Positions 1 through 14,008 of a stretch of DNA of 64,000 nucleotides are shown here, in pieces. Where the stretch lies: the NCBI GenBank assembly GCA_963666365.2, contig CAXXNF010000002.1, positions 512,001-576,000 on the forward strand. The letters run 5' to 3'. The stretch is from Syntrophales bacterium. GTDB taxonomy: Bacteria; Desulfobacterota; Syntrophia; Syntrophales; UBA2210. Position numbers and translations under genes: made by a program. Under the pieces are notes generated by a model. That model did no database searches. It was not told where the DNA came from and saw only the letters and a list, made by a program, of their open reading frames with translations. Positions within the stretch are counted from its first letter, which is position 1; the number at the start of each line of letters is the position of its first letter.

Positions 1-1100
1 AAGTTCAGTCTGACAAAGCCTTCGCCGTCGAAGGGTGTTCCGTCGAAGAGCCCGACGCCTGCATTTTCAAAGGTCGCGGCAGGGGTGGCGATGCCTGATT
101 CCCTTGTATCTATCCACGCAAGGTAGGTGGCTTCCACGTGATTCGTGGAAAGTCCCGGGATGGTTTCGATGGCACGTTCCACGAGATCCCTGTTTGTCCT
201 GAGATAGGTAAGAAGCGCCGAATGCCATGCGCTGCAGTCGCGGTATGCGGCAAGGGCAGCCGTCAATCCCAGTGCGTTTACATGCGGCACGATGCCGTTC
301 ATTTCACGGCTGAAGTTCCGTCGAAGTGCGGTGTCGGGGATAATGGCGAAGGAACAGCCCAGACCGGGGAGATTAAAAGTCTTGCTTGGCGCCATCAGGG
401 TAATGGTGCGCATGGCTGTCCGGGGATCAAGGGTTGCCGTGGGGATGTGGCGTTTATCCCTGTCGAGGAGAAGTTCGCAGTGGATTTCATCAGAGCATAT
501 CACCAGGTCGTACCGTTCGCAGATGTCAGCCAGTGTGGAAAGTTCTTCTTTCCCGAAGATCCTTCCCGTCGGGTTATGCGGGTTGCATAGGAGGAGGAGT
601 CGAGTTCCGGACGTGATGGCATGTTCCAGGCGATCGAAGTCAATCACCCAGGTTCCTTCTTTCTTGTCGAGAGGAACCGTGATGCATTCCCTCGATGCGT
701 TTCGCGGCGCCGTCAAAAATGGGGGATAGACCGGCACCATGGTCAATACCGCATCGCCGGCGCTTCCCACTGCTCGGCAGGCCACATTGAGGCCTGCGAC
801 AAGACCGGGGAGCCATACAATCCATTCCGGCTCAATCTTCCATGCATACCGGCGTGCCATTCTTTCGATTACGACTTCGGTCAGTGCAGGAGGTACCAGC
901 GAGTACCCGAAAACTCCGTGGTCCACCTGTGTGCGCAGGGCATTGGCGATCGGCGGTGCGACGGGGAAATCCATGTCGGCGACCCAGAGAGGGATAACAT
1001 CTCTTCCCTGGTAAATATCCCACTTCAAGCTGTGAGTGCCCCGCCTTTCGACGGGGCGGTCAAAATCAAATTGTATTTCATTAATGGTGCTCTTTGTCAA
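1..1100 (-). CDS. patB: MalY/PatB-family PLP-dependent C-S lyase (cystathionine beta-lyase); 3' end runs off the window
   Basis: Not in the ORF track. Manual minus-strand translation from TTG at 1100 (RBS GAGGAGG) gives ...FDFDRPVERRGTHSLKWD...IPLWVADMDF and C-terminal GVGLFDGTPFDGEGFVRLN, typical PatB motifs. Confidence 0.9.
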   Translation of the reverse strand, partial: MTKSTINEIQFDFDRPVERRGTHSLKWDIYQGRDVIPLWVADMDFPVAPPIANALRTQVDHGVFGYSLVPPALTEVVIERMARRYAWKIEPEWIVWLPGLVAGLNVACRAVGSAGDAVLTMVPVYPPFLTAPRNASRECITVPLDKKEGTWVIDFDRLEHAITSGTRLLLLCNPHNPTGRIFGKEELSTLADICERYDLVICSDEIHCELLLDRDKRHIPTATLDPRTAMRTITLMAPSKTFNLPGLGCSFAIIPDTALRRNFSREMNGIVPHVNALGLTAALAAYRDCSAWHSALLTYLRTNRDLVERAIETIPGLSTNHVEATYLAWIDTRESGIATPAATFENAGVGLFDGTPFDGEGFVRLN

Positions 1101-1336
1101 AAATTGTTCCTCCTCTGCGAATTCTCAATCTAACGCAGGAAAAGTGGTAGTGCAAGCAGCATTTCGGCCGCAAAAGGGTTCTAAGCATTGGACAAATAAC
1201 CTGTTTTTATTTTTATTCCAATATGTGATAATAAGAACCGGCCTTCAAAAGGGCGGGTTCAGTGCCGGAGATGCGTTTTTTTGTCCTGCGCACATGATAG
1301 GCGATACTACGATTGAGAAGGAAAAGGGAGTGTTAG

Positions 1337-1645
1337 ATGAGTCTTAAAAAAAAATACCTGACAACAAGAAACACCTGTAAGGTTACCTTTCGATTGGCGA
1401 AGGAAGCGGCGGAAAAGGCGGAGACGGTAAATCTTGTCGGCGATTTCAATGATTGGGATCAGAAAGCCCATTCAATGAAGCGATTGAAAAGCGGCGATTT
1501 TACTATTACCATCGATCTCGATTCGGGAAGGGCGTACGAATTCCGCTATCTGATTAATGGGGAAAGGTGGGAAAATGACTGGTCGGCCGACAGGTACAAC
1601 CCCAGCCAGTATTCCTACTGCGATAACTCGGTAGTGGAAACCTGA
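1337..1645 (+). CDS. Isoamylase early-set / CBM48 glycogen-binding domain protein
   Basis: V.LVGDFN.W, M...K.G.F, YEFRYLING.RW.ND motifs; 102 aa; RBS GGGAG. Confidence 0.85.
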   Translation: MSLKKKYLTTRNTCKVTFRLAKEAAEKAETVNLVGDFNDWDQKAHSMKRLKSGDFTITIDLDSGRAYEFRYLINGERWENDWSADRYNPSQYSYCDNSVVET

Positions 1646-1845
1646 GCGCATGATGACAGGAACGCCGAACGGGTGAAATGGCACCAAAATGTAGTGACCT
1701 TTTGCAATTTCTACAGTTATGTAGCAATCAAAAAATGTACATCTGTTCCCTGTGGCTGCGTACACATGTGCCTACGCAGTGTAATATTAAGAAATAACGT
1801 ACAATTTAGCGTGTTGATCCTACGGACCGTGATAAAAAATATTTT

Positions 1846-1861
1846 CGGCACGCTAATTGCT
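1846..1861 (+). promoter_or_regulatory. sigma54 (-24/-12) promoter of the glutamine synthetase gene
   Basis: CGGCACG-CTAA-TTGCT matches the TGGCACG-N4-TTGCW consensus with correct GG/GC spacing, 68 nt upstream of the GSIII start. Confidence 0.8.
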
Positions 1862-1928
1862 GTCTCGACTTTTAAACGAGAACCGTTGACATACGCACCA
1901 ACAGGAAGGAAAAGGAGGCAGGAATATT

Positions 1929-4112
1929 ATGGACGGTAATAAAGCACGATTACAGGCGGTGACAGCTCTCGCCGAACCCTGTAAGCTTGAAAGAAAATTC
2001 GACTTTATCGGCGATTCAGCCCAGGAGCTTTTCGGATCGAATGTCTTCAGTTTGAGAGTTATGAAGACCTGTCTTCCAAAAGCCGTATTTAAATCGCTCA
2101 AGGAAACCATTGAAACAGGCAGGCCGCTCGACGAAAGCATCGCCGATGTAGTGGCGGCCGCAATGAAGGATTGGGCAATTTCCAAAGGCGCCACTCATTT
2201 TACCCATGTGTTCTATCCGTTGACCGGTTTGACCGCGGAAAAACATGATTCCTTTCTCATTCCGGACGGTGAGGGGGGGGCGATTACCGAGTTTACGGGA
2301 AAATCCCTTATCCAGGGGGAGCCGGATGCCTCCAGTTTTCCCTCGGGAGGCATTCGCACCACCTTTGAGGCCCGTGGCTACACTGCCTGGGATGTGACAA
2401 GTCCCGCCTACATTATGGAAAATTACAATGGATCGACCCTCTGTATCCCCACCGCCTTCATTTCATGGACCGGCGAGGCCCTTGATAAAAAGACGCCCCT
2501 GCTGCGCTCCATGCAGGCACTGGACAAAGAGGCGAGAAGGGTATTGAAGCTTTTCGGACACGAAAGTATCTCAAAGGTCACTACCTATGCAGGGTGCGAG
2601 CAGGAATATTTTCTGATTGATCGAAAGTTTTATAATGCCCGCCCCGACGTGATGCTTGCCGGGCGCACGCTCTTCGGGGCGCCGTCGCCGAAGGGTCAGG
2701 AGTTTGACGATCACTATTTCGGGGCCATAAATGAACGTGTGCAAGGCTTTATGATGGAGGTGGACCGGGAGCTTTTTAAACTGGGCATTCCTTCACGGAC
2801 ACGACATAACGAGGTGGCGCCGGGGCAGTTTGAAATTGCGCCTCTTCACGAACCGGCAAACCTGGCGGCGGACCATCAGCAGATGACGATGACCATTCTG
2901 AAAAAGGTGGCCGAGAGAAACGGCCTTGCCTGTTTGCTCCATGAGAAACCCTTTGCCGGCATCAACGGTTCCGGAAAACATCTTAATTTTTCAATCGGAA
3001 ATACAACGCAGGGGAATCTCTTCGATCCCGGAACCACGCCGCATGAGAATGCGCAGTTTCTTGTATTCTGCGCGGCGGTCATTAGGGCGGTACATCTGAA
3101 CGCACCACTCCTTCGGGCCGTGGTGGCTTCAGCGGGAAATGACCACAGGCTGGGCGCCAATGAAGCGCCGCCGGCGATCATGTCCATCTTTCTGGGTGAC
3201 GAGTTGGCAGGCATATTCGAGCAGATTCTTAAAAATGAAAAAAAATCATCCAGGGCAAACGGCGTCATCAATGTCGGTGTTGACACGCTGCCGGCTATTC
3301 CCCGCGATGCCGGTGACAGAAACCGCACGAGTCCCTTTGCCTTTACAGGCAATCGTTTCGAGTTTCGTGCCGTCGGTTCGAACCAATCGGTGAATGGACC
3401 TCTGGTTGCTTTGAACACGATACTGGCCGATTCACTGGACTACATCGCCACGTCACTGGAAAATACGATAAAGGGCGATCCGAAGAAATTCAACGATGCA
3501 GTGCAGGCGATCGTCAAGGAAATTATGCAAAAGCACAGTGCGGTCATTTTCAACGGAGACGGCTATACAGAAGAATGGCAAAAGGAAGCGGCAACCCGCG
3601 GTTTGCCCAACATGAAAACGACCGTTGACGCGCTTCCGGCAATCACCGCCCGCGATGTTGTCGCTATGTTCGAAAAGCATAAGGTGCTTTCATCGGTGGA
3701 ACTGGAAAGCCGGGAAGAAGTGTACTTCGAGCAGTATTGCCTTTCCGTGAAGGTAGAGGCAAACCTGACTGCAAAGATCGCCAAAACCATTATATTTCCT
3801 GCAGCGATCAGGTATCAAAGCGAGCTTGCCAAAACCTGTGCCGATCTGAAGGCTGTGGGGTATAGCTTTGATACGAATACGCTCGACAGGGTAACCGGTC
3901 TGGTGAAGAAGCTTCAGGACGGCATTGCCGCGCTGGAAGACGCGCTTGCCAGAAGAGGTGGAAAATCAATCAGTGCACAGGCTAAATACTACAGAGACAA
4001 AGTGATTCCGGCCATGAACGAAGTGAGAAGAGCCGCCGATATTATGGAAGGGGTTGTGGCCGACGACCTCTGGGCGTTGCCCATGTACTTTGAGATGTTG
4101 TTTATCAGGTAG
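1929..4112 (+). CDS. glnA: Glutamine synthetase type III
   Basis: 727 aa; [67 protein letters not shown]. Confidence 0.95.
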
Positions 4113-4169
4113 GAACAATGTGAGCAATTGTCTGGTTGCAGAGAATAGTCACATTCAAAGTGAAAAAAC

Positions 4170-4199
4170 TTGACATAAATCTGAGATTTGAAGTATAGA
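4170..4199 (+). promoter_or_regulatory. sigma70-type promoter of the trp leader
   Basis: TTGACA (4170-4175), 18-nt spacer, TATAGA; the spacer contains the palindrome AAATCT-G-AGATTT. Confidence 0.6.
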
Positions 4200-4225
4200 G
4201 ATGCACATATCTGAAGGGAAGAGAA

Positions 4226-4324
4226 ATGCGGGACGTGAAGTACACTCTCTATCGCAAATTGAATAGGCAACTCTGGTGGTGGACCAACATAGCAGTGTCT
4301 GCCGGCGCACCTTCCCACTTTTAG
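4226..4324 (+). CDS. trpL: Tryptophan operon leader peptide MRDVKYTLYRKLNRQLWWWTNIAVSAGAPSHF
   Basis: 32-codon ORF with three tandem TGG codons (4274-4282), purine-rich RBS, upstream of terminator hairpins and trpB. Confidence 0.88.
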   Translation: MRDVKYTLYRKLNRQLWWWTNIAVSAGAPSHF

Positions 4325-4395
4325 TAATTGCAGTACCATACATAATAATAAAGGGACCGTAGGCAGCACCATTGCCCTCGGTCCTTTTTTCGTAG

Positions 4396-4434
4396 AAAAA
4401 GGGGCCTGGAGAAATCCATGCCCCCTTTTTTTTT
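4396..4434 (+). terminator. trp attenuator terminator
   Basis: GGGGC-c-TGGA-gaaa-TCCA-t-GCCCC stem followed by a 9-T run. Confidence 0.85.
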
Positions 4435-4519
4435 ACTGCGGTTGAAAATATCAGGCAGTATGTAATGCTCGCATGTGAAGGTTTGAGTCGTGCGTGCGAG
4501 ACAACATGGAGGATGACAT

Positions 4520-5758
4520 ATGCAAAAACCGTCAACAAGTAACGATACACCGAAGATGACGTCCATGCCCGACGAAAGCGGTCATTTCGGTCCTCATGGC
4601 GGGCGCTACGTGGCGGAAACGCTTATGACGGCGCTCCTGGAGCTGGAAGGCGCCTACAGAAGGATCTCTCCCGAGCGCATGTTTCAAGAGGAACTGGAGG
4701 TACTGCTGGCCGACTATGCCGGCCGTCCCACTCCCCTCTACTATGCCCGTCGGTTAAGTGAACATCTTGGCGGCGCCCAAATCTACCTCAAGCGGGAAGA
4801 TCTGACCCACACGGGCGCTCACAAGATCAATAACACGCTGGGGCAGGCGCTGCTTGCCCGGTGGATGGGAAAAAAGAAGGTTATCGCTGAAACCGGCGCC
4901 GGTCAGCACGGGGTTGCCACCGCAACGGCGGCGGCGCTCTTCGGCATGGAGTGCATAATATTCATGGGCGTGGAGGATATTCGGCGACAAGCCCCCAATG
5001 TGCTTCGTATGAAACTGCTTGGCGCGGAGGTGATACCCGTTGAGTCCGGCGCCGGAACCCTGAAGGATGCCATGAACGAGGCCATGCGATACTGGGTGGG
5101 CGCAGTGGAAGACACCCACTATGTAATTGGTTCGGTTGCCGGGCCTCATCCCTATCCCATGATGGTACGGGATTTTCAAAAAATCATCGGGGAAGAAGTA
5201 AAAGACCAGATGCGGAATTCCCACGGCCGGTTTCCTGACGTGCTTGTGGCCTGCGTGGGCGGAGGGAGCAATGCAATGGGGCTGTTCCATCCCTTTCTGG
5301 AAACGTCGGCAACGCTGGTGGGGGTGGAGGCGGCGGGAAAGGGCATCGCCTCGGGCAAACACGCGGCGACTCTCGGCGAGGGTTCCCTGGGGGTGCTCCA
5401 CGGCTCAAAGTCCTATGTGCTTCAGGACGAAAGCGGGCAAATCAAGGAAGCTCACTCTATTTCCGCGGGACTTGATTACCCCGGTGTCGGTCCTGAGCAC
5501 TCGTTCTTGAAAGACGCCGGCAGAGCACACTATGTCTCGGTGGATGATGACGAGGCGATGGAGGCCTTTCATATGCTGTGCCGTCTGGAGGGAATCATTC
5601 CGGCATTGGAGAGTTCCCATGCCGTTGCCTATTGTCTCAAGAATGCACCGCACATGTCAAAGGATACGGTGGTGGTGGTGAATCTGTCCGGAAGGGGCGA
5701 TAAAGACCTGGGCATTGTATCGGAGTATGAACGAAGGAAAGGGGAGGTGAGCCGATGA
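4520..5758 (+). CDS. trpB: Tryptophan synthase beta chain
   Basis: [16 protein letters not shown] (PLP lysine), [36 protein letters not shown]. Confidence 0.97.
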
Positions 5759-6594
5759 GCAGACTGGATCTCCGATTTGCCGATCTGAAAAAACGAAGTG
5801 AAAAGGCGCTTGTGGGATTTGTTGCGACAGGAGATCCCACATTGCCTGTTTCACTTGAACTTATCACGGCCATGTGCCATGCCGGTCTCGATGTGCTGGA
5901 ACTGGGCGTTCCCTTTTCCGATCCCACAGCCGATGGTCCCGTGATACAGCGTGCCGCGGCGCGGGCCCTGAGGGCAGGTGCGAGCCTTGCAAAAGCGATT
6001 GAAATGACAAAAACCTTGCGGGGAAGAACCGATATACCCATTATCCTTTTCAGCTATTACAATCCCATCTTTGCCTACGGACATGAATCATTTTACCGTG
6101 ATGCCCGCAATGCCGGGGCCGATGGCGTACTTGTCGTGGATCTGCCCCACGAAGAGTCGAGGGAACTGACGAAATGCTGGGAGAGAAACGACGATTTTGC
6201 ATTGATCCGGCTTGTGGCGCCTACCACGCCGGATGAAAGAATGAAAACGATCACGGAGAATGCATCGGGATTTCTCTACCTGGTTTCGAAGACAGGGGTG
6301 ACCGGAGGCGCCGGTGTGGATAGGGACAGCGTGAGGACCAAGGTAACGACGCTGCGCGCCCTTACGGACCTGCCCATATGTGTGGGATTCGGCATCTCCG
6401 GTCCCGAAGATGCAAGAATGCTGGCCCCCCACGCCGACGGAATCGTGGTGGGTAGTGCCTTCGAAAGGGCCATAGAGGATAATATGGATGATCCGGAGCT
6501 TGTCGCAGGGCTGGAGAGACAGGTGAACGAATTGAAGCAGGCGCTGAAACCGCTTGGCGAACATAACAATAATAAAAAGGAGGAAACCCCATGA
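5755..6594 (+). CDS. trpA: Tryptophan synthase alpha chain
   Basis: [37 protein letters not shown] overlap with trpB. Confidence 0.96.
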
Positions 6595-7937
6595 TTACAG
6601 CACTGGTGCTTTTTAAGGCGGAAAAGGGAAAAATCCAGAAGCTGGCCATGCAACTGGGTGCCATCGAAGAGGTGGTGGAAGTACTGTCCATTACCGGAGA
6701 ATATGATCTGATGGCAAAGATTCAGGTGCGGGAATATGAGCATCTGTCCGACATTGTGACGGATAAGATGCAGAATACGGAAGGCGTTACGGGGACAAGG
6801 ACGATGATGGCCTTCAAGACGTACAAGTTTCATGAACTGGGTGAAGGCGCGCCCGCGGCAATGATGGTTTCATCAGCCGAAGAGGAAGCGGTCGCACTGC
6901 TGGAGAACGGGAAGAGCACGATCAAGCCGGTCCTTTCAAAGCTGACCGAAAACTTTGATCTGGAGAAGAGCGAAATCTACAGCGTCATCGATGCGATTCA
7001 CGAAGGACAGCTGTCGGAGGTGCAGATTGCCGGGTTTCTGGTGGGACTTCTCAGCAAGGGTCCGAGCATCAAGGAGGTGGCCTATATCGCTCAGGCAATG
7101 CGAAAAAACTGCATTCCCATGCATGTCTCCGTAGGGTCGGAACTCACTGATACATGCGGTACCGGCGGTGGGTTAACCACCTTCAATGTCAGTACGGCAA
7201 ACGCAATCCTGACCGCATCGGCCGGTGTGCCCGTGGCCAAACACGGCAGCAGATCCATATCATCCCCATCGGGGAGCGCCGATGTTCTTGAAGCGCTGGG
7301 CGTCAAAATTGATCTGCAGCCCGAAGAGGCATCCCGGCTGATCGAGGACATAGGAATCAGCTTCATCTATGCGCCGAACTTTCATCCTGTCATGCTCAAG
7401 GTGTTCGGTCCGGAGAATCAGCTGGGCATAAAAACGATATTTTTTACCATCATCGGGCCTCTCATCAATCCGACAGGCGCCCGCAACCATATGATCGGCG
7501 TGTACAAGCCCGAACTGGTCAACATGATGGCAAGCGTAGTGGCAGAGATGGATTTTAATCATGTCATTGTTGCCCACGGGCTTGACGGGCTGGATGAAAT
7601 ATCATTGATCGGAAAGACCTCGCTTGCGGAAATCAGGGGCAGGGAAATCAAATACTTCGAAGTCGCCCCGGAGGATTTCGGTTTCACACGCTGTACCCTG
7701 AAAGATATCGCAGGAGGAACTCCCGATTTCAACGCGAAGGTTATCAGGGATATCTTCTCCGGTCGAGAGCAGGGTCCACGGAGGGATTTCCTGCTCCTTA
7801 ACAATGCAGCCACGCTCTATGTAAGCGGCAAGGCATCGAGCATCCAGGATGGAGTGGCGCTTTCCCGGTCTCTCATCGATTCCGGGGCGGGCGCCCGCAA
7901 ACTGGAAGAACTTGTGGAAAAATCGAATGCCCTTTGA
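6591..7937 (+). CDS. trpD: Fusion of an N-terminal Lrp/AsnC ligand-binding (RAM) domain to an atypical anthranilate phosphoribosyltransferase
   Basis: aa 1-80 EVVEVLSITGEYDLMAKI...EGVTGTRT fit the AsnC C-terminal domain, with no HTH. The rest has DTCGTGG, FNVST, AKHG, SGSADVLEALG, GLDE. Acceptor-site residues are altered. Confidence 0.85.
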   Translation: MITALVLFKAEKGKIQKLAMQLGAIEEVVEVLSITGEYDLMAKIQVREYEHLSDIVTDKMQNTEGVTGTRTMMAFKTYKFHELGEGAPAAMMVSSAEEEAVALLENGKSTIKPVLSKLTENFDLEKSEIYSVIDAIHEGQLSEVQIAGFLVGLLSKGPSIKEVAYIAQAMRKNCIPMHVSVGSELTDTCGTGGGLTTFNVSTANAILTASAGVPVAKHGSRSISSPSGSADVLEALGVKIDLQPEEASRLIEDIGISFIYAPNFHPVMLKVFGPENQLGIKTIFFTIIGPLINPTGARNHMIGVYKPELVNMMASVVAEMDFNHVIVAHGLDGLDEISLIGKTSLAEIRGREIKYFEVAPEDFGFTRCTLKDIAGGTPDFNAKVIRDIFSGREQGPRRDFLLLNNAATLYVSGKASSIQDGVALSRSLIDSGAGARKLEELVEKSNAL

Positions 7938-7949
7938 TAGTGTGCTGTC

Positions 7950-8687
7950 ATGAATAGCAATGCAAACACCGCGCAAGGGGAAAAAAAATCAACGCTTGCC
8001 TCGTTCATACGCACTCGGCAGCGAGAGGGTCTGTTCCCCGTAATATCTGAAGTGAAGGTGCGTTCCGAAAAGGAGGGCGATCTTCTGCGCGGGCGCGATC
8101 CGGTCGCGCTCGCCTGTGAAATGGGCCGGTCAACCATCGCGGGAATAAGCGTCGTGACGGAACCGGATCATTTCGGCGGAGACTTGAACCTTTTGCGCGA
8201 GATCGCCGCGGCGGTAGATTTGCCCGTGCTGCATAAAGATTTCATTACGTCGGAGCGTCAAATCGAGGAATCAGCCGCAGCAGGCGCCTCGGCCATACTA
8301 CTGATCACCGCCATGGTCGATGCAACCCAAATGGCGCGTCTGATTGCATATGCCCGACAGTGCGGGCTTGAAACCCTTGTGGAAGCACACAACATGGAAG
8401 AGGTGAAAATGATAACGTCTCTTCCTTTTGACCTTATGGGAATCAACAACCGCGATATTACCGTTTTCGAAGTGGACGACAACGACGTGGGAAGGACGGA
8501 GGCGCTCGCCCGTTTCTGTAAAAGCAGTCGGCCGCTGATCAGCGAAAGCTCGATCAGTTCTCACAGTGACGTACGGCGCGCGGGCAGAAGCGGCGCCGAT
8601 GCCGTGCTGGTCGGCACGGCGGTGCTGAAAGCGCCCTCAATTTCAGGGTTTTTACGGGAACTGATATCGGTGGGATGGCCGCCATGA
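7950..8687 (+). CDS. trpC: Indole-3-glycerol-phosphate synthase (divergent)
   Basis: ISEVK, ISVVTE, LHKDFI, LVE, GINNRD, ISESS, LVGTA. Confidence 0.88.
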   Translation: MNSNANTAQGEKKSTLASFIRTRQREGLFPVISEVKVRSEKEGDLLRGRDPVALACEMGRSTIAGISVVTEPDHFGGDLNLLREIAAAVDLPVLHKDFITSERQIEESAAAGASAILLITAMVDATQMARLIAYARQCGLETLVEAHNMEEVKMITSLPFDLMGINNRDITVFEVDDNDVGRTEALARFCKSSRPLISESSISSHSDVRRAGRSGADAVLVGTAVLKAPSISGFLRELISVGWPP

Positions 8688-9373
8688 CGCGGATTAAAGT
8701 ATGCGGGATTACCACAGAAGAAGACATCTGCCTCTGCGTTGCGGCGGGTGTCGATGCCCTGGGCTTTGTGGTGGAGTACCCGATTGACGTGCCATGGAAT
8801 CTGGACAGACAACAGGCCAGAATACTGATGCAACAGGTGCCTCCATTTGTGTCGAGGGTAATCGTGGTCGGCGACGATCCACAGACCATCATTACACTGG
8901 CGGACCTGTTGAGGCCTCACGCTGTCCAATTGCATGGTAAGGAATCACTCTCCCTCACGGCGAAACTTGTGACCGCGCTTCATGCGCGTCGCATTTCGGT
9001 GGTAAAGGCACTGCGTATTTCCATCGAGACGGGGAAATGCACAAACGCAGGAGAAAATCCCCTCGATGCCGCAGGGCTTATTGAAGATGCCGGTGTCGAT
9101 GCTTTGCTTCTGGACTCGGTGACTGAAGGACGCCCGGCGGGAACAGGCCGTACTATAGATTGGGGTATTGCACGTTATATCAGAAAAATGGTGAAGCTTC
9201 CCCTTATACTTGCGGGCGGCTTGCAGGCAGAAAACGTCGGCGAAGCCATTGCAACCGTCCATCCCTTCGCTGTCGATGTGATCAGTGGCGTCGAAAATCC
9301 TGTGGGAAGAAAAGATTCCGAAAAGATACAGGCGTTTATCACCGCAGTAACCACAGCTACGAGCCAGAGGTAG
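8684..9373 (+). CDS. trpF: Phosphoribosylanthranilate isomerase (divergent)
   Basis: IKVCGIT, DALGFV, VQLHG.E, LLLDS, GTG..IDW, LILAGGL, VDVISGVE; ATGA overlap with trpC. Confidence 0.88.
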   Translation: MTRIKVCGITTEEDICLCVAAGVDALGFVVEYPIDVPWNLDRQQARILMQQVPPFVSRVIVVGDDPQTIITLADLLRPHAVQLHGKESLSLTAKLVTALHARRISVVKALRISIETGKCTNAGENPLDAAGLIEDAGVDALLLDSVTEGRPAGTGRTIDWGIARYIRKMVKLPLILAGGLQAENVGEAIATVHPFAVDVISGVENPVGRKDSEKIQAFITAVTTATSQR

Positions 9374-9585
9374 AATCAGTGGCACCCGGGGGGGGGGTAA
9401 TGAATGTTTCATGATTTCGGAATATGAACATTCTTGTTTTTTCTCGTCTCTCCCTTTGACGATTTGTTCAATGCATTGTTGACTTACCATGTTTGTTTTA
9501 CCATACTCATATGTTCAAGTATGCTTCATGGAGATTTATTCAAAATCTTACCATTAAGTATGTAATTAAAAGTGGAGGATATCGA

Positions 9586-11868
9586 ATGCCGATAGCAACA
9601 GACAGACTGCGGATGTTACTCATCAACACATTTATATTTCTCATAGCGTTTGTGTGGGCTGATGAACTGATCGATATGCCCCGTGTTACTTCCGGCGGTC
9701 AGCCAACACCCATAAATTGGGTTGAAGCACTAATCGAGACGGTGGTGATTGCAGCGGTGGGCTTTCTTACGGTAACACGATTTTTTTCAAAGCAAGAAGC
9801 AAAGAGCCCGCGCGGATTAGCGAGGGAAGAACGGTATACCTGGATCACGGTGTCATGTTCGTTTCTGGGGTTGTGTTGTATGGTATGGCTAAATGAAATT
9901 ATAGACGTGCCCTATCTTCTACTGCAGGGCGAAAAAACTCCCCTCAACTGGTCGGAAGCCGCTGTTGAAACATTTCTTATTATTATCGTCGGTGGCATAG
10001 CACTCTCGATTCTGATGCGCAAGATACGTGAACGAGACAAAGCACAGAATCTTTTTTTCAAAAGCTTTTACTTCAATCCTGTCGGGGCAGCAATTACATC
10101 ACTAAACAATAACACAATAATTCATGTAAACGAGGCATTTTCTGCCACGACCGGTTACAGGCCGCAACAGATTGTCGGAAAATCTATGGAAGAGCTTAAC
10201 ATGTGGGCTTTTCAGGAAGAACGCAATGAGGTGATTACTGCGCTTCATAAAGAAGGCTCTGTGCGCAATGTGGAAGTAAGCATCCGAGATATCGAAGGAA
10301 ATTACAAGACCGTTTTGTATTCGGCAGACATCATTGATTATGTAGGTGAACAGCATGTGCTTTCCGCGGCCATTGACATAACAGACCGAAAACGTACACA
10401 GGATCTGCTCATAAAAACCGAGACCAAATACAGGGATATGTTTATGCACTCGATACAGGGCATTGCGGTTTATAGTGAAACAGAGGACGGCGACGATTTT
10501 GTTATAATGGACATCAACAAAGCGGGCGAACGAATAGATAGAATCAAGAAGGCAGACGTCATGGGAAAGACAGTTTCTGAAATATTTCCAGGTATTCGTG
10601 AATTCGGCCTGCTTGACGGGTTGAAGCGAGTATGGAAATCTGGTGAAGCTGAGCACCTGCCCACATCGTATTATAACGATGGAAGGATCGAGGGTTGGCG
10701 GGATAATTATTTATATAAGCTCGCTTCAGGCGAGATTGTGGCACTCTACAGCGACGAAACGGCGCGTAAAAATGCCGAAAAGGAACTTTCCAAGCGTCAA
10801 CGGGAACTTCTGATAAGCGAGGAAAAGTTTTCCAAGGCCTTTCACGCAAGCTCTGATCTTATCACAATTTCGACACTAAAGAACGGAGTCTTTATAGATG
10901 TCAACGATATGTTTCTGAAAACTCTCAGCTATTCGCTGAAAGAGGTTATCGGACACTCCGCGATAGATCTTGGCATGTGGGGAAACAGAGAAAAGCGGGA
11001 TCTGATGACCGATATTGTGCTTAAACAGGGGAAAATACGTAATTACGAAGTAAATCTTCACACCAAAGACGGGAATGAGCGGACAATGCTGGTGTCCGCC
11101 GACAGGTTTGTGTTTCAGGGCGAAGACTGCATGCTTATGATAAGCCGTGACATCACCGATCGAAAACGTATGGAGGAGCAGATTAGGCTCTCCGAAAAAC
11201 AACTTCGTGATCTATACAAAAACCTTCAGGAAACAAGAGAAACTGAGCGAACTCGTATTTCCCGTGAAATTCATGACGACCTCGGTCAAGAGCTTACCGT
11301 ACTGAAACTGGAAATGCAACAATTGGCGCATACATTACCCGAGGGTGATGATGTTTTTAAGAAAAAGACCGCGGTAATTATAGATCACATAGACTTGGCC
11401 ATAGACTCCATGAGAAGAATTTCAATGGACCTGAGGCCCGCCCTGCTGGATCAGCTTGGCCTGATTGCGGCAATTGAATGGCAAGCCGAAGATTTTCAGA
11501 AGAGGGCGGGTGTTCCCTGTCTCCTGACTATTGATCCCGGGATTACGATAATCAACACAAAACTATCTACCACCCTGTTTCGTATTTTTCAGGAAACGTT
11601 AACGAATATAACCCGTTATGCTTCGGCTTCGAAGGTGAATGCTGCATTGCGAAAGCTGCCGGATGCGCTCGAGCTGACCGTTTCAGATGATGGAAAGGGG
11701 ATTACAGAGGCAGAGATTGAAAATCCTAAGTCCTTCGGCATAATCGGCATGAAAGAACGAGTATCAGACTGGGGTGGAACAATCGAGATATCGGGAAAAA
11801 GAGGGAGGGGTACCACGGTACGGGTGTCGATTCCTTTCTCCGCCAATGATATAAGGGAGACTGATTAA
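9586..11868 (+). CDS. Membrane PAS-domain sensor histidine kinase (HisKA_3/NarX-like)
   Basis: Four N-terminal TM helices, three PAS repeats (DITDRKR), ERTRISREIHDDLGQEL, FRIFQETLTN, DDGKG, GIIGMKER; start chosen after GGAGG. Confidence 0.9.
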   Translation: MPIATDRLRMLLINTFIFLIAFVWADELIDMPRVTSGGQPTPINWVEALIETVVIAAVGFLTVTRFFSKQEAKSPRGLAREERYTWITVSCSFLGLCCMVWLNEIIDVPYLLLQGEKTPLNWSEAAVETFLIIIVGGIALSILMRKIRERDKAQNLFFKSFYFNPVGAAITSLNNNTIIHVNEAFSATTGYRPQQIVGKSMEELNMWAFQEERNEVITALHKEGSVRNVEVSIRDIEGNYKTVLYSADIIDYVGEQHVLSAAIDITDRKRTQDLLIKTETKYRDMFMHSIQGIAVYSETEDGDDFVIMDINKAGERIDRIKKADVMGKTVSEIFPGIREFGLLDGLKRVWKSGEAEHLPTSYYNDGRIEGWRDNYLYKLASGEIVALYSDETARKNAEKELSKRQRELLISEEKFSKAFHASSDLITISTLKNGVFIDVNDMFLKTLSYSLKEVIGHSAIDLGMWGNREKRDLMTDIVLKQGKIRNYEVNLHTKDGNERTMLVSADRFVFQGEDCMLMISRDITDRKRMEEQIRLSEKQLRDLYKNLQETRETERTRISREIHDDLGQELTVLKLEMQQLAHTLPEGDDVFKKKTAVIIDHIDLAIDSMRRISMDLRPALLDQLGLIAAIEWQAEDFQKRAGVPCLLTIDPGITIINTKLSTTLFRIFQETLTNITRYASASKVNAALRKLPDALELTVSDDGKGITEAEIENPKSFGIIGMKERVSDWGGTIEISGKRGRGTTVRVSIPFSANDIRETD

Positions 11869-11953
11869 ACGCACCACATCAAATCATTACATATATAATG
11901 CGTCAATAAAGTACAACAGGCTCACAGCGATGAAAGAACTCTGAAAAGTTACA

Positions 11954-13918
11954 ATGGAAATAACCACGGACATCATTCTCTTAATCGTCGCAGCGTTTTT
12001 CAGCGGTCTTCTGATGCAGAAGCTCGGCCAGCCCTTGATACTCGGATATATGCTGGTGGGGTTTATTCTCGGTCCCCATACAGGGGGGGTCACGGTTTCA
12101 AGCATCCATGAAATAGAACTGCTGGCGGAAATCGGCGTTGCCCTGCTTTTATTCGCCCTGGGGCTCGAATTTTCCTTCAAGGATTTAAAAGAAGTCAAAA
12201 AGATCGCCCTGATCGGAACCCCTATTCAGATACTGCTGACTATAGGGCTTGGTCTGGGAATCGGACATTTCCTGGGCTGGGAATTGAGACAATCTCTCTG
12301 GTTCGGCGCGTTGATTTCTCTTTCCAGTACCATGGTAATTCTGAAAACACTGATGAACCAGGGCTGGATCGGCACACTGTCGAGCAAGGTGATGGTGGGG
12401 ATGCTGATTGTGCAGGATCTGGCGGTGGTTCCCATGATGATTATCCTCCCCCAGATACACACTGCTGAGATTGGTCTGTCCGCACTCGGGTATGCCGCGG
12501 TGAAGGCGGCGTTCTTTATCGCGGTAATGGTGCTCCTGGGTACAAAGCTTTTGCCTCGACTGATGACCCATATAGCCAAACTGGGCTCGCGGGAACTGTT
12601 TCTGCTTGCGATTACCGCCATCGGGCTCGGGATAGGCTATGTAACCTATCTGTTCGGTCTTTCCTTTGCCTTTGGCGCCTTTGTGGCGGGTATGGTGTTG
12701 AGTGAATCGGACTACGGCCACCAGGCCTTGAGCGATATTATTCCGGTCCGGGATCTTTTTGCATTGCTCTTTTTCGCCTCCGTAGGCATGTTGCTGGAAC
12801 CGGCCTTTCTCCTGCAGCATTGGAGTGAGGTGATCCTGCTTGTTGTTCTGGTAAGTGTGGGGAAGGGATGCATCTTTGCGGCACTCTCACGGCTCTTTGG
12901 CTACGGTAACGTGGTTCCTTTTGCCGTTGGGCTGGGACTGTTTCAAATCGGGGAATTTTCCTTTGTCCTTGCACAGGTGGGCCTGGTGACAGGCTCAATC
13001 AGTCACGACCTCTATTATTTTGTGCTCACCACCGCAGTGGTTACGATGGTGCTTACCCCGCTTGTCTCAGGCCGGACGGCACAGTTATATGCACTGAAAA
13101 AGCGCTGGTTCAAACACGAACCTCTTGAAACGAAAAATATTCCTGAAAAGGGTCTTCAAAATCACGTGGTCATTGCCGGCGGCGGCCGCGTGGGCTATCA
13201 GATCGCAGAGGTTCTCACGCGACTGGGACTCCAAAGCGTGATCGTCGAGATCGACCAGCGCAGATTGGAAAAGGCAAAAATAGGGGGAATACCTGTTGTC
13301 TATGGAGATGCAGGCCATGAGATTGTGCTTGAAGCGGCTGAAATTGCAGGCGCAAGTCTCCTTGTGGTGACCATGCCTTCGATTGTTGTGGCCCGATCGA
13401 TTATCAAACACGCAAAGCGCTGCAACAGCAGAATCGAGGTGGTCGCAAGGACATCGGATGCCGAATTTTTGCCTGTTTTTGCAGAGCTGAATGTGAGGGG
13501 CGTGGTCCTTCCTGAATTTGAAACCGGATTGGAGATGATTCGACAGGTGCTTCTGGATCTCGGCATACCGGCCCCGGAGATTCAGCAGTGCACGGAGACG
13601 ATGCGACAGGAGCTTTTCGGGCCCATGTTCAAACCGGTCAGCGGTTACCGTACATTGGGACAGTTCAGAACGGCGGAACAGCAATTCGATCTGCAGTGGG
13701 TATTGATTGAAGACGCCAGTCCGCTCATTGGGAAATCAATCGGGGAAACCGAGATCAGAAAAACTACGGGGGCTTCAGTTGTTGGAGTGATCAGGCATGA
13801 GGTGCTTGAGCCGAATCCGGCGACTCATTTCAGTTTTGGCGCGGATGATCTAGTTGCAATCATCGGTACCGACGAGGCGCGGGCAGCCTTTCGGCAGATG
13901 GCGGAGGTTCATGAATGA
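11954..13918 (+). CDS. CPA2 (Kef-type) cation:proton antiporter with TrkA-N and TrkA-C domains
   Basis: [45 protein letters not shown]. Confidence 0.9.
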
Positions 13919-14008
13919 AATATGGGCCGACTATGAAGACAACAGAGGGACACGGGGCGGCGCGGCAAATGTGTTACACTTCATGAAAGTATTGGAAGGA
14001 GAGCAGTT

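Follow-up and report, generated by a model that had tools for sequence, protein, structure and literature searches.

A diverged second set of TrpD, TrpC and TrpF homologues in a tryptophan operon of a Syntrophales bacterium: a candidate entry into tryptophan from an aromatic amine other than anthranilate

Organization of the Locus

We examined a stretch of 64,000 nucleotides from a Syntrophales bacterium (assembly GCA_963666365.2, contig CAXXNF010000002.1, positions 512,001–576,000, forward strand), hereafter called the window, in which trpB and trpA are followed by unusual homologues of TrpD, TrpC and TrpF. Homologues of the window type ("E-type") are denoted TrpD', TrpC' and TrpF', or D', C' and F' where gene orders are given, and coordinates are window positions unless a contig or locus is named. 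The window holds one attenuator-controlled operon composed of a leader, trpB, trpA, TrpD', TrpC' and TrpF' (Table 1), with the open reading frames (ORFs) at the coordinates given by the sequence-only reading, an earlier annotation made by a model from the DNA letters and the translated ORFs.

The Pfam and NCBIfam profiles give family assignments for all five genes, and the NCBI equivalog cut-offs are passed by TrpB, TrpA and TrpD' but not by TrpC' and TrpF'. A whole-genome search found the trpA and trpB1 genes of this genome in the window operon only, trpB1 being the sole copy above the family cut-off. Elsewhere in the genome (G000:C1:921565-922593) there is a TrpB2-like pyridoxal phosphate enzyme that scores 139.5 bits, under the trpB cut-off.

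By its sequence and predicted fold, the leader is a classic Trp attenuator, in which a small ORF containing Trp codons in tandem precedes a terminator hairpin with its U-run. The WWW attenuator reported earlier is thus real, its leader peptide preceding two hairpin/U-run terminators. The minimum free energy fold of the region is −73 kcal/mol (z = −2.96). A simple terminator scan missed both hairpins because their loops exceed the limit of the scan, and Rfam gave no match in window positions 1–14000 at E ≤ 0.1.

Table 1. Features of the tryptophan operon and of the gene upstream of it (window positions).
Feature	Position	Strand	Remarks
Type III glutamine synthetase	1929-4112	+	Upstream of the ~400-bp leader region
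trp leader peptide, 32 codons, MRDVKYTLYRKLNRQLWWWTNIAVSAGAPSHF*	4226..4324	+	Three tandem Trp codons at 4274-4282
Two G+C-rich hairpins with a U-run after each (attenuator terminators)	~4353-4390, ~4396-4434	+	Predicted from fold and sequence
trpB (TrpB1 type)	4520..5758	+	TIGR00263, 626.9 bits vs cut-off 392
trpA	5755..6594	+	Sole genome copy; 4-nt overlaps with trpB and with TrpD'
TrpD', 448 aa	6591..7937	+	RAM/AsnC domain, linker, then TrpD fold
TrpC', 245 aa	7950..8687	+	Indole-3-glycerol phosphate synthase homologue
TrpF', 232 aa	8675..9373	+	Phosphoribosylanthranilate isomerase homologue; overlaps TrpC' by 13 nt

Substrate-Binding Residues of TrpD', TrpF' and TrpC'

The best solved relatives of TrpD' are anthranilate phosphoribosyltransferase (AnPRT) structures (E = 2.6e-82, HMMER). 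The motifs for phosphoribosyl pyrophosphate (PRPP) and Mg that the sequence-only reading had listed, GTGG (190–193), NVST, KHG, SGS and GLDE (333–336), are all retained in the HMMER alignment to these structures, and the second-metal pair D335–E336 is conserved in TrpD' and canonical TrpD alike.

The three replacements claimed for TrpD' were also seen in the alignment. The signature loop is GTGG-G, the Asp of GTGGD having gone through a one-residue deletion; KHGN has become KHGS, with Ser220 at 7248–7250; and Glu275 (7413–7415) occupies the position on helix alpha8 of Arg164 in the Sulfolobus solfataricus enzyme (Ss) and Arg193 in that of Mycobacterium tuberculosis (Mtb). The spacing between Ser220 and Glu275, 55 residues, is the same as between Asn109 and Arg164 (Ss) or Asn138 and Arg193 (Mtb). 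The passages of PMC5537072 on this Arg describe it as conserved, anthranilate-binding and essential for catalysis, and name GTGGD as the family signature. Around Glu275, TrpD' reads P-E-N-Q-LGIKT-IFFT, as opposed to (V/P)-R-(K/R)-E-LGIRT-(V/I)F-N in the solved AnPRTs.

All the altered states (GTGG-G, KHGS, Glu275, Thr286, an aromatic insertion of one residue and His300) are invariant in 119/119 close homologues. For comparison, the query was aligned with its 142 best 50%-identity cluster representatives, 136 of which were canonical. Site 275 is Arg in 135/136 of these nearest canonical clusters, the Asn of KHGN is found in 128/136, and position 286 is Asn in 133/136, as against Thr286 in TrpD'. 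The extra aromatic residue of TrpD' stands at 285, where 135/136 canonical clusters have no residue at all, and position 300, an invariant His in the E-type, is Gln in 113 of the 136. The loss of the Asp of GTGGD is a non-absolute feature, because only 114/136 canonical clusters have it. At positions 269 and 276, which are Lys or Arg in 124/136 and 113/136 canonical clusters, TrpD' of the window has Leu and Asn, and the TrpD' proteins of the Bacillota type have a second acidic residue two positions after Glu275. Judging from these residues, the changes would turn the cationic anthranilate channel acidic or neutral.

TrpD' also has a RAM domain (AsnC_trans_reg, PF01037; 56.4 bits vs cut-off 25) fused to its N-terminus at residues 7–77 (6609–6821), joined to the TrpD fold by a disordered linker at residues 76–95. 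The predicted RAM fold is beta-alpha-beta-beta-alpha-beta (in the model, strands 2–10, 28–33, 40–46 and 66–76, helices 15–23 and 49–60), and solved stand-alone RAM proteins are among the matches of this domain. It is present in all TrpD' proteins of the Desulfobacterota type and in the snail endosymbiont protein described below, and absent from the Bacillota type.

TrpF' matches PF00697 with 102.6 bits (cut-off 22.7), its best NCBIfam equivalog score is 167.6 against a cut-off of 215, and its best solved relatives are phosphoribosylanthranilate isomerase (PRAI) structures (E = 5.7e-32). It keeps the catalytic base Cys10 and acid Asp147 of canonical TrpF and reads V39-P40-W41 (8789–8797) in place of the S-x-R loop, both as the earlier annotation had it. 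Val and Trp are found in 68/68 F' sequences, and Ser and Arg in 34/34 canonical ones. The Arg of this loop (Arg36 in Thermotoga maritima) presumably contacts the carboxylate of anthranilate. The clade pattern of the loop is E-Y-P-x-x-V-P-W-N, with a fixed acidic residue ahead of Y-P; the window protein has Y-P-I-D-V-P-W-N, and the solved PRAI Y-P-K-S-K-R-Y.

TrpC' scores 185.1 bits with PF00218 (cut-off 27) and 218.4 with its best NCBIfam equivalog (cut-off 284), and structures of IGPS, the synthase of indole-3-glycerol phosphate, are its best solved relatives (E = 3.1e-36). The residues E34, K36, K96, E145, N166, R168, E199 and S200 are retained, E34 being Asp in the Bacillota type. The first six of these and the replacement of SPS by SEK agree with the sequence-only reading; an insertion after NNRD that it took as distinctive is not, since the canonical Thermus enzyme has the same one and no gap arises in the alignment.

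The beta1-alpha1 loop of TrpC' is S-E-K-E-G-D-L (clade pattern S-x-K-x-G-D-L), so that E-V-K-V-R-S-E-K-E-G stands against E-V-K-x-x-S-P-S-x-G in the solved IGPS. Of 93 C' sequences, 72 have Lys where SPS has its second Ser, and the others have Ala or Gln; in canonical TrpC each position of S-P-S is kept in 25 or 26 of 26. Leu45, Glu174 (93/93) and Ile170 (93/93) are invariant in C', Arg49 is present in 91/93, and the canonical Tyr58 is Met or Leu.

The lid of TrpC' is changed as well. In the sections of PMC7681013 that deal with the canonical IGPS, helix alpha0 and loops 1, 2 and 6 enclose the ligand. The AlphaFold2 model of TrpC' (predicted local distance difference test 90.1) has a single N-terminal helix (residues 16–25) and no alpha0 lid helix, the N-terminus being about 19 residues shorter than in the canonical TrpC of the same genome. 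A termite-gut C' of 207 aa begins at position 50 of the hidden Markov model (HMM) and has no N-terminal helices.

The Canonical Set of the Same Genome

Whole-genome profile searches (Chorismate_bind and Glycos_transf_3) found a second cluster at C2:1.513–1.518 Mb, about 1 Mb from the window, with the order aroE-aroA-aroK-aroC, a WWW leader (MNRNWWWTRIKRKGCIRR*), trpE-trpG-trpD-trpC-trpF and tyrA. The enzymes of this cluster bear canonical motifs, including P-S-P-R-Y. The genome thus has two D/C/F sets, both Trp-attenuated, and a single TrpAB.

The sequence-only reading had stated that no anthranilate synthase lies in the operon or window. This holds for the window only, and the argument that it built on the absence of trpEG falls with the complete canonical trpEGDCF, which has its own WWW leader. 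Therefore, D'C'F' adds to the anthranilate route and is not a replacement for it. The idea of a Trp-poor isoenzyme set was rejected: D and D' are both without Trp, and F and F' have two Trp each.

Some features of the canonical locus were noted in passing. Its upstream region (L004:11672-11950) carries the WWW leader with a terminator, and ahead of this leader lies a short tandem repeat with units like CAGACCAGACAGACCAAATGAACCAAA. A palindromic intergenic repeat, AAAAATAGGGAAGTGTCCCTATTTTT, an example of which is at L004 ~12030-12060, has 70 genome copies of its 12-base core on C1 and C2, none of them in the window, and surfaces as a recurrent "GHFPIF" in spurious ORF translations.

The canonical set is found alongside D'C'F' in all 16 genomes checked, one of which (G091) is cut by a contig end. 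D' is present in 11 of 151 genomes sampled from the order of the window, and 10 of these 11 also have a canonical TrpD, at 37–42% identity. We rejected G091 as a genome with D' alone, its trpE contig ending inside trpE. Another five genomes each contain a pair of TrpD genes, of which one adjoins trpE. In Syntrophus buswellii, Syntrophorhabdus aromaticivorans and ORM2a, a complete trpE-G-D-C-F-B-A operon exists together with a separate D'C'F', and in S. buswellii and ORM2a a leader ORF containing WW(W) lies upstream of trpE.

Distribution, Gene Neighbourhood and Phylogeny

The Desulfobacterota set comprises 32 loci from a species genome collection, with TrpD' at 70–90% identity. TrpC' comes next in 30/32 and TrpF' in 27/32 of them, the missing cases being contig ends, and trpBA is directly upstream of TrpD' in 13/32. 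The named hosts are Syntrophus buswellii, Syntrophorhabdus aromaticivorans, Smithella, the benzene-degrading ORM2a, Desulfatitalea alkaliphila and a metagenome-assembled genome of Desulfofervidaceae; a protein search added a homologue of TrpD' (72% identity) in the gammaproteobacterial endosymbiont of the scaly snail. In an exhaustive representative search the whole RAM-bearing clade formed one 50% cluster, and further relatives at 46–67% identity had the same hallmarks without the RAM domain.

Leaders homologous to that of the window, with WWW or WWWW, precede trpB in 12/13 related loci. Homologous Trp leaders also stand directly before a stand-alone D'C'F' in 7/18 loci, including those of S. 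buswellii and Syntrophorhabdus, and therefore the expression of D'C'F' itself is tied to the charging of Trp-tRNA.

Forms without the RAM domain abound in gut metagenome contigs of the Bacillota type. A metagenome scan yielded 80 loci, out of more than 508 relatives, mostly from termite gut and some from human gut, sludge and sediment. A protein search gives Clostridia, Oscillospiraceae, Lachnospiraceae and Selenomonadaceae as carriers, and the ESM Atlas label is only "anthranilate phosphoribosyltransferase, Bacillota". The genes are arranged as B-A-D'-C'-F', as D'-C'-F'-B-A or as F*-B-A-D'-C', where F* is another TrpF (see Discussion). The hallmarks in these loci are GTGGG, KHGSRS and (P/A/T)-E-x-(E/D)-LGIKTIFY in D', (E/D)-Y-P-x-x-V-P-W-N in F' and (P/I)-D-(I/F)-K-x-x-S-P-(K/Q/A)-x-G-D-L in C'. 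On contig L053, trpE-G-D-C-F-B-A-D'-C'-F' lie in a row, and L085 has ...C-F-B-A-D'-C'-F'. Upstream of 41 operons of the Bacillota type, where the start estimates are rough, a search for WW leaders gave five WW ORFs, none of them convincing or conserved. Rfam at the gathering threshold gave only one M-box and one tRNA, and no T-box, in 12 of the 80 metagenome loci.

The sequence-only reading had called for a phylogeny and a neighbourhood survey of the E-type TrpD. In a FastTree phylogeny of 262 TrpD cores, 113/113 E-type sequences fall into one clade with a Shimodaira–Hasegawa-like support of 0.885, which rises to 0.984 when the sister P0130 is included. The sub-clades are a Bacillota type (77 tips, 0.996), the RAM-bearing Desulfobacterota type (30 tips, 0.999) and a sensor-fused type (5 tips, 1.0). 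C' and F' are the adjacent genes, trpBA is usually a neighbour as well, and trpE/G was found within the fetched flanks in only 1/112 E-type loci, where it is part of a canonical D-C-F.

The metagenomic P0130, sister to the E-type, has Glu275, the one-residue insertion, Thr286 and His300 and reads a degenerate KQGI for KHGS; possibly it has diverged further or is inactive. In five metagenomic proteins (P0122, P0124, P0125, P0136 and P0123), E-type TrpD domains with all the catalytic motifs form the N-terminal part of sensors, which are PAS-HisKA-HATPase histidine kinases and PAS-GGDEF(-EAL) proteins. Here a TrpD module that resembles an enzyme has apparently been taken over as a sensor input. 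A membrane-anchored multi-PAS HisKA_3 histidine kinase is also encoded directly downstream of TrpF' in the window (9493–11868), and PAS kinases flank D'C'F' at L015 and L022, which is maybe a coincidence.

Taken together, and as far as aligned residues can indicate, D', C' and F' form a coherent, co-inherited and monophyletic triad with clade-invariant changes at or over the positions predicted to face the carboxylate of anthranilate.

Discussion

Gene content, residue states, co-inheritance, leaders with Trp codons and co-occurrence with the canonical set are direct observations, and at the level of residues the pattern is real and far beyond chance. The case that substrate recognition changed in concert gains strength from paralogy, from monophyly, from the regulation by Trp and from the obligate co-occurrence with the canonical set. 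Conservation of the catalytic machinery speaks for three reaction types as in the canonical enzymes, in which an arylamine is N-phosphoribosylated, the product undergoes an Amadori rearrangement and a ring is closed. The linkage to TrpAB and the Trp leaders argue for indole-3-glycerol phosphate (IGP) and tryptophan as the output, and the combined changes on the aryl side of D', F' and C' suggest that the substrate is different where anthranilate has its carboxylate. In addition, no set has been lost in the genomes checked, which argues against the same job for both, since with equal function one set should often be lost.

On these grounds we tentatively favour, with nearly even credence, an accessory branch induced by Trp starvation, which would convert an arylamine other than anthranilate to IGP for the single TrpAB. 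From the residues and gene contexts above we infer what follows on catalysis, on the identity and charge of the substrate, on the product and on the effector of the RAM domain. TrpD' would couple PRPP to an aromatic amine other than free anthranilate, neutral, cationic or zwitterionic at the carboxylate position. TrpF' would perform the Amadori rearrangement, and TrpC' would close the pyrrole ring with a proton or an acyl-type group, not CO2, as the leaving group; the ortho substituent would be either an acyl group removed by hydrolysis, with a kynurenine-like or aminobenzaldehyde-like amine as the substrate, or absent from the start. The resulting IGP would be consumed by the only TrpA/TrpB of the genome. 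Where TrpD' has the N-terminal RAM domain, as in the Desulfobacterota form, an amino acid may in addition control the first committed step allosterically.

Ring closure without a carboxylate has a precedent in vitro. According to Soderholm et al. 2020 (PMC7681013), AnPRT, a HisA mutant and IGPS convert aniline to IGP through phosphoribosylaniline and 1-(phenylamino)-1-deoxyribulose 5-phosphate (PAdRP), the efficiency of the decarboxylated route with the canonical IGPS being 41,000-fold lower. This route, as described there, makes carboxylate-free ring closure possible in principle.

Thus, the claim of the sequence-only reading that a different aromatic amine feeds TrpAB retains its support in the concerted pocket changes, the Trp leader and the adjacency of the only trpA and trpB1, while its corollary, the replacement of the anthranilate route, is contradicted by the canonical trpEGDCF.

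A number of findings weigh against this reading. Its main rival is the explanation that D', C' and F' are an isofunctional second route, using anthranilate, phosphoribosylanthranilate (PRA) and 1-(2-carboxyphenylamino)-1-deoxyribulose 5-phosphate (CdRP) with the carboxylate held otherwise, by a relocated base, a metal or a protonated Glu. We regard this explanation as a serious possibility, though rather doubtful, and take the same view of its evolutionary version, an old and horizontally mobile anthranilate-to-tryptophan salvage module kept for its kinetics, RAM regulation or inhibitor resistance.

TrpD' passes the equivalog-domain model TIGR01245 with 355.2 bits (cut-off 199.05), besides scoring 269.7 with PF00591 and 62.2 with PF02885; all catalytic residues are retained in the triad, and the block resembles known partial trpDCFBA salvage operons. 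In TrpC', the Arg168 position of loop 6 is Arg in 76/93 and Lys in 17/93 C' sequences, and the lid loop has gained Lys41 and Arg49; each of these could bind a carboxylate. According to PMC7681013, the loop-6 Arg of IGPS contacts both the carboxylate and the phosphate.

A basic residue at 298 or 299 of the E-type TrpD, together with the invariant His300, might likewise substitute for the lost Arg; however, basic residues at 298/299 are common in canonical enzymes too, hence they are no specific compensation, and the comparison of the 68 F' with the 34 canonical sequences revealed no basic residue specific to the F' clade.

The F*-B-A-D'-C' operons, which are of the termite-gut type, make up 20 of the 80 metagenome loci; they include L063, L066, L069, L070, L086, L098, L099, L107, L112, L120, L122 and L126. 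Eight "Fstar" sequences and four variants carried enough TrpF sequence to be aligned. F* is canonical-like, with Arg or Lys in a shortened loop (T-P-H-R-Q-Q), and has 32% identity to canonical TrpF and 25% to F'. The presence of such an Arg- or Lys-bearing F* beside D' and C' fits a carboxylated intermediate.

Two further points weigh on the same side. The canonical operon is also WWW-attenuated, therefore regulation does not separate the two sets. A substrate-supply gene conserved in the flanks of six Desulfobacterota loci (51 ORFs) was not found. In L096 and L097, where other genes interrupt the D'-C'-F' row, the inserted genes had nothing in common either, those of L097 being mobile or defence-like, and in the flanks and inserts examined no decarboxylase and no tailoring or export gene was conserved nearby.

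Nevertheless, the use of anthranilate by both sets would have to account for a reversal of charge at the near-universal Arg site of canonical TrpD, and for three redundant enzymes kept together in every genome checked, even in one operon and even beside a complete trpEGDCFBA.

Another explanation concerns the product. If a substituted arylamine were used and the ring closed at a free ortho carbon, the result would be a substituted IGP, from which TrpAB would make an analogue of tryptophan or a substituted indole. This is unlikely, and so is the role of such an indole as a cofactor, signal or secondary metabolite. The polar and charged residues in the altered pockets do suggest a substituent that is retained, and the E-type TrpD as an input domain of PAS kinases and GGDEF/EAL proteins hints that its ligand can signal; against this stand the Trp-codon regulation in the window and before stand-alone D'C'F', the location of the only canonical trpA and trpB1 of the genome in the operon, and the lack of conserved tailoring and export genes in the neighbourhoods just described.

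Aniline itself, with TrpC' cyclizing PAdRP by deprotonation, is a sub-case of the favoured reading. We consider it very unlikely, given that the residues brought in, an invariant Glu for Arg among them, are polar and charged and not hydrophobic. In its favour are the in vitro precedent (PMC7681013) and the fact that D' and F' have lost the Arg that binds the carboxylate; opposed to it are the absence of an evident biological source or a decarboxylase conserved nearby, the Arg-bearing F* subgroup and the gain of Lys41 and Arg49 in the lid loop of TrpC'. The probability left after the non-anthranilate branch, the use of anthranilate and the substituted product goes to other readings.

Returning to the branch from a non-anthranilate arylamine, a neutral, cationic or zwitterionic ortho substituent would appear to fit the residues of the three pockets better than aniline does. 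More broadly, it is a reasonable conjecture, with doubt somewhat outweighing confidence, that many anaerobes hold a natural second entry into tryptophan from a non-anthranilate aromatic amine with ring closure independent of decarboxylation, the TrpD module serving in addition as an input to kinases and cyclic di-GMP proteins. The carriers would then be the Syntrophales with other Desulfobacterota, many Bacillota from the guts of insects and mammals, and the snail endosymbiont. A search of the Creative Commons-licensed part of PubMed Central and of bioRxiv gave no literature on an AsnC-TrpD fusion or on a second trpDCF set in anaerobes, and none on phosphoribosylaniline beyond PMC7681013.

The segment from anthranilate through PRA and CdRP to IGP counts as universal and serves textbooks as a model of enzyme evolution. 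If another arylamine is the substrate, tryptophan biosynthesis would have a new precursor and a new ring-closure chemistry, the scoring of Trp pathways as "complete" or "incomplete" in gut and sediment metagenomes would change, and protein engineers would have IGPS and PRAI scaffolds of natural origin for substrates that lack the carboxylate. If the substrate is anthranilate instead, the triad would be a natural experiment in which carboxylate recognition was re-solved three times in concert, which raises the question of why three redundant enzymes stay together. In either case, annotations such as "anthranilate phosphoribosyltransferase" hide a distinct subfamily.

Comparison with Known Systems

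The triad shares the folds and families of canonical TrpD, TrpF and TrpC (PF00591/PF02885, PF00697 and PF00218), keeps their catalytic, PRPP, Mg and phosphate residues, and like the canonical trp genes is linked to trpBA and a Trp leader. It differs from them in that TrpD' lacks the Asp of GTGGD, has KHGS, has Glu for the anthranilate-binding Arg and carries a fused RAM domain; in that TrpF' has V-P-W-N for S-x-R; and in that the beta1-alpha1 loop of TrpC' is altered and its alpha0 lid is missing. Both TrpC' and TrpF' score below every NCBIfam equivalog cut-off, and the triad is additional to the canonical set.

TrpD2/YbiB, a nucleic-acid-binding protein, likewise has a TrpD fold that has diverged and that occurs together with the canonical TrpD. 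Unlike it, TrpD' reaches only 45.8 bits against the 185-bit YbiB cut-off and keeps the PRPP and Mg motifs, and TrpC' and TrpF' always come after it.

In the aniline route in vitro (PMC7681013), an AnPRT, an Amadori isomerase and an IGPS also make IGP from a decarboxylated substrate. The difference is that promiscuous canonical or engineered enzymes are used there, with a HisA mutant in the place of PRAI, and that no natural pathway is presented in that work.

Some Chlamydiaceae have partial trpDCFBA operons for "tryptophan recapture", in which kynurenine is converted to anthranilate and then to tryptophan; the de novo genes are missing from these hosts, whose enzymes are of the ordinary kind and work with a kynureninase. 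As in those operons, the window contains a D-C-F-B-A block without trpEG, suggesting salvage of an arylamine and not de novo synthesis. Unlike them, the window block exists beside a full canonical pathway, has no adjacent kynU-like gene and encodes enzymes with altered pockets.

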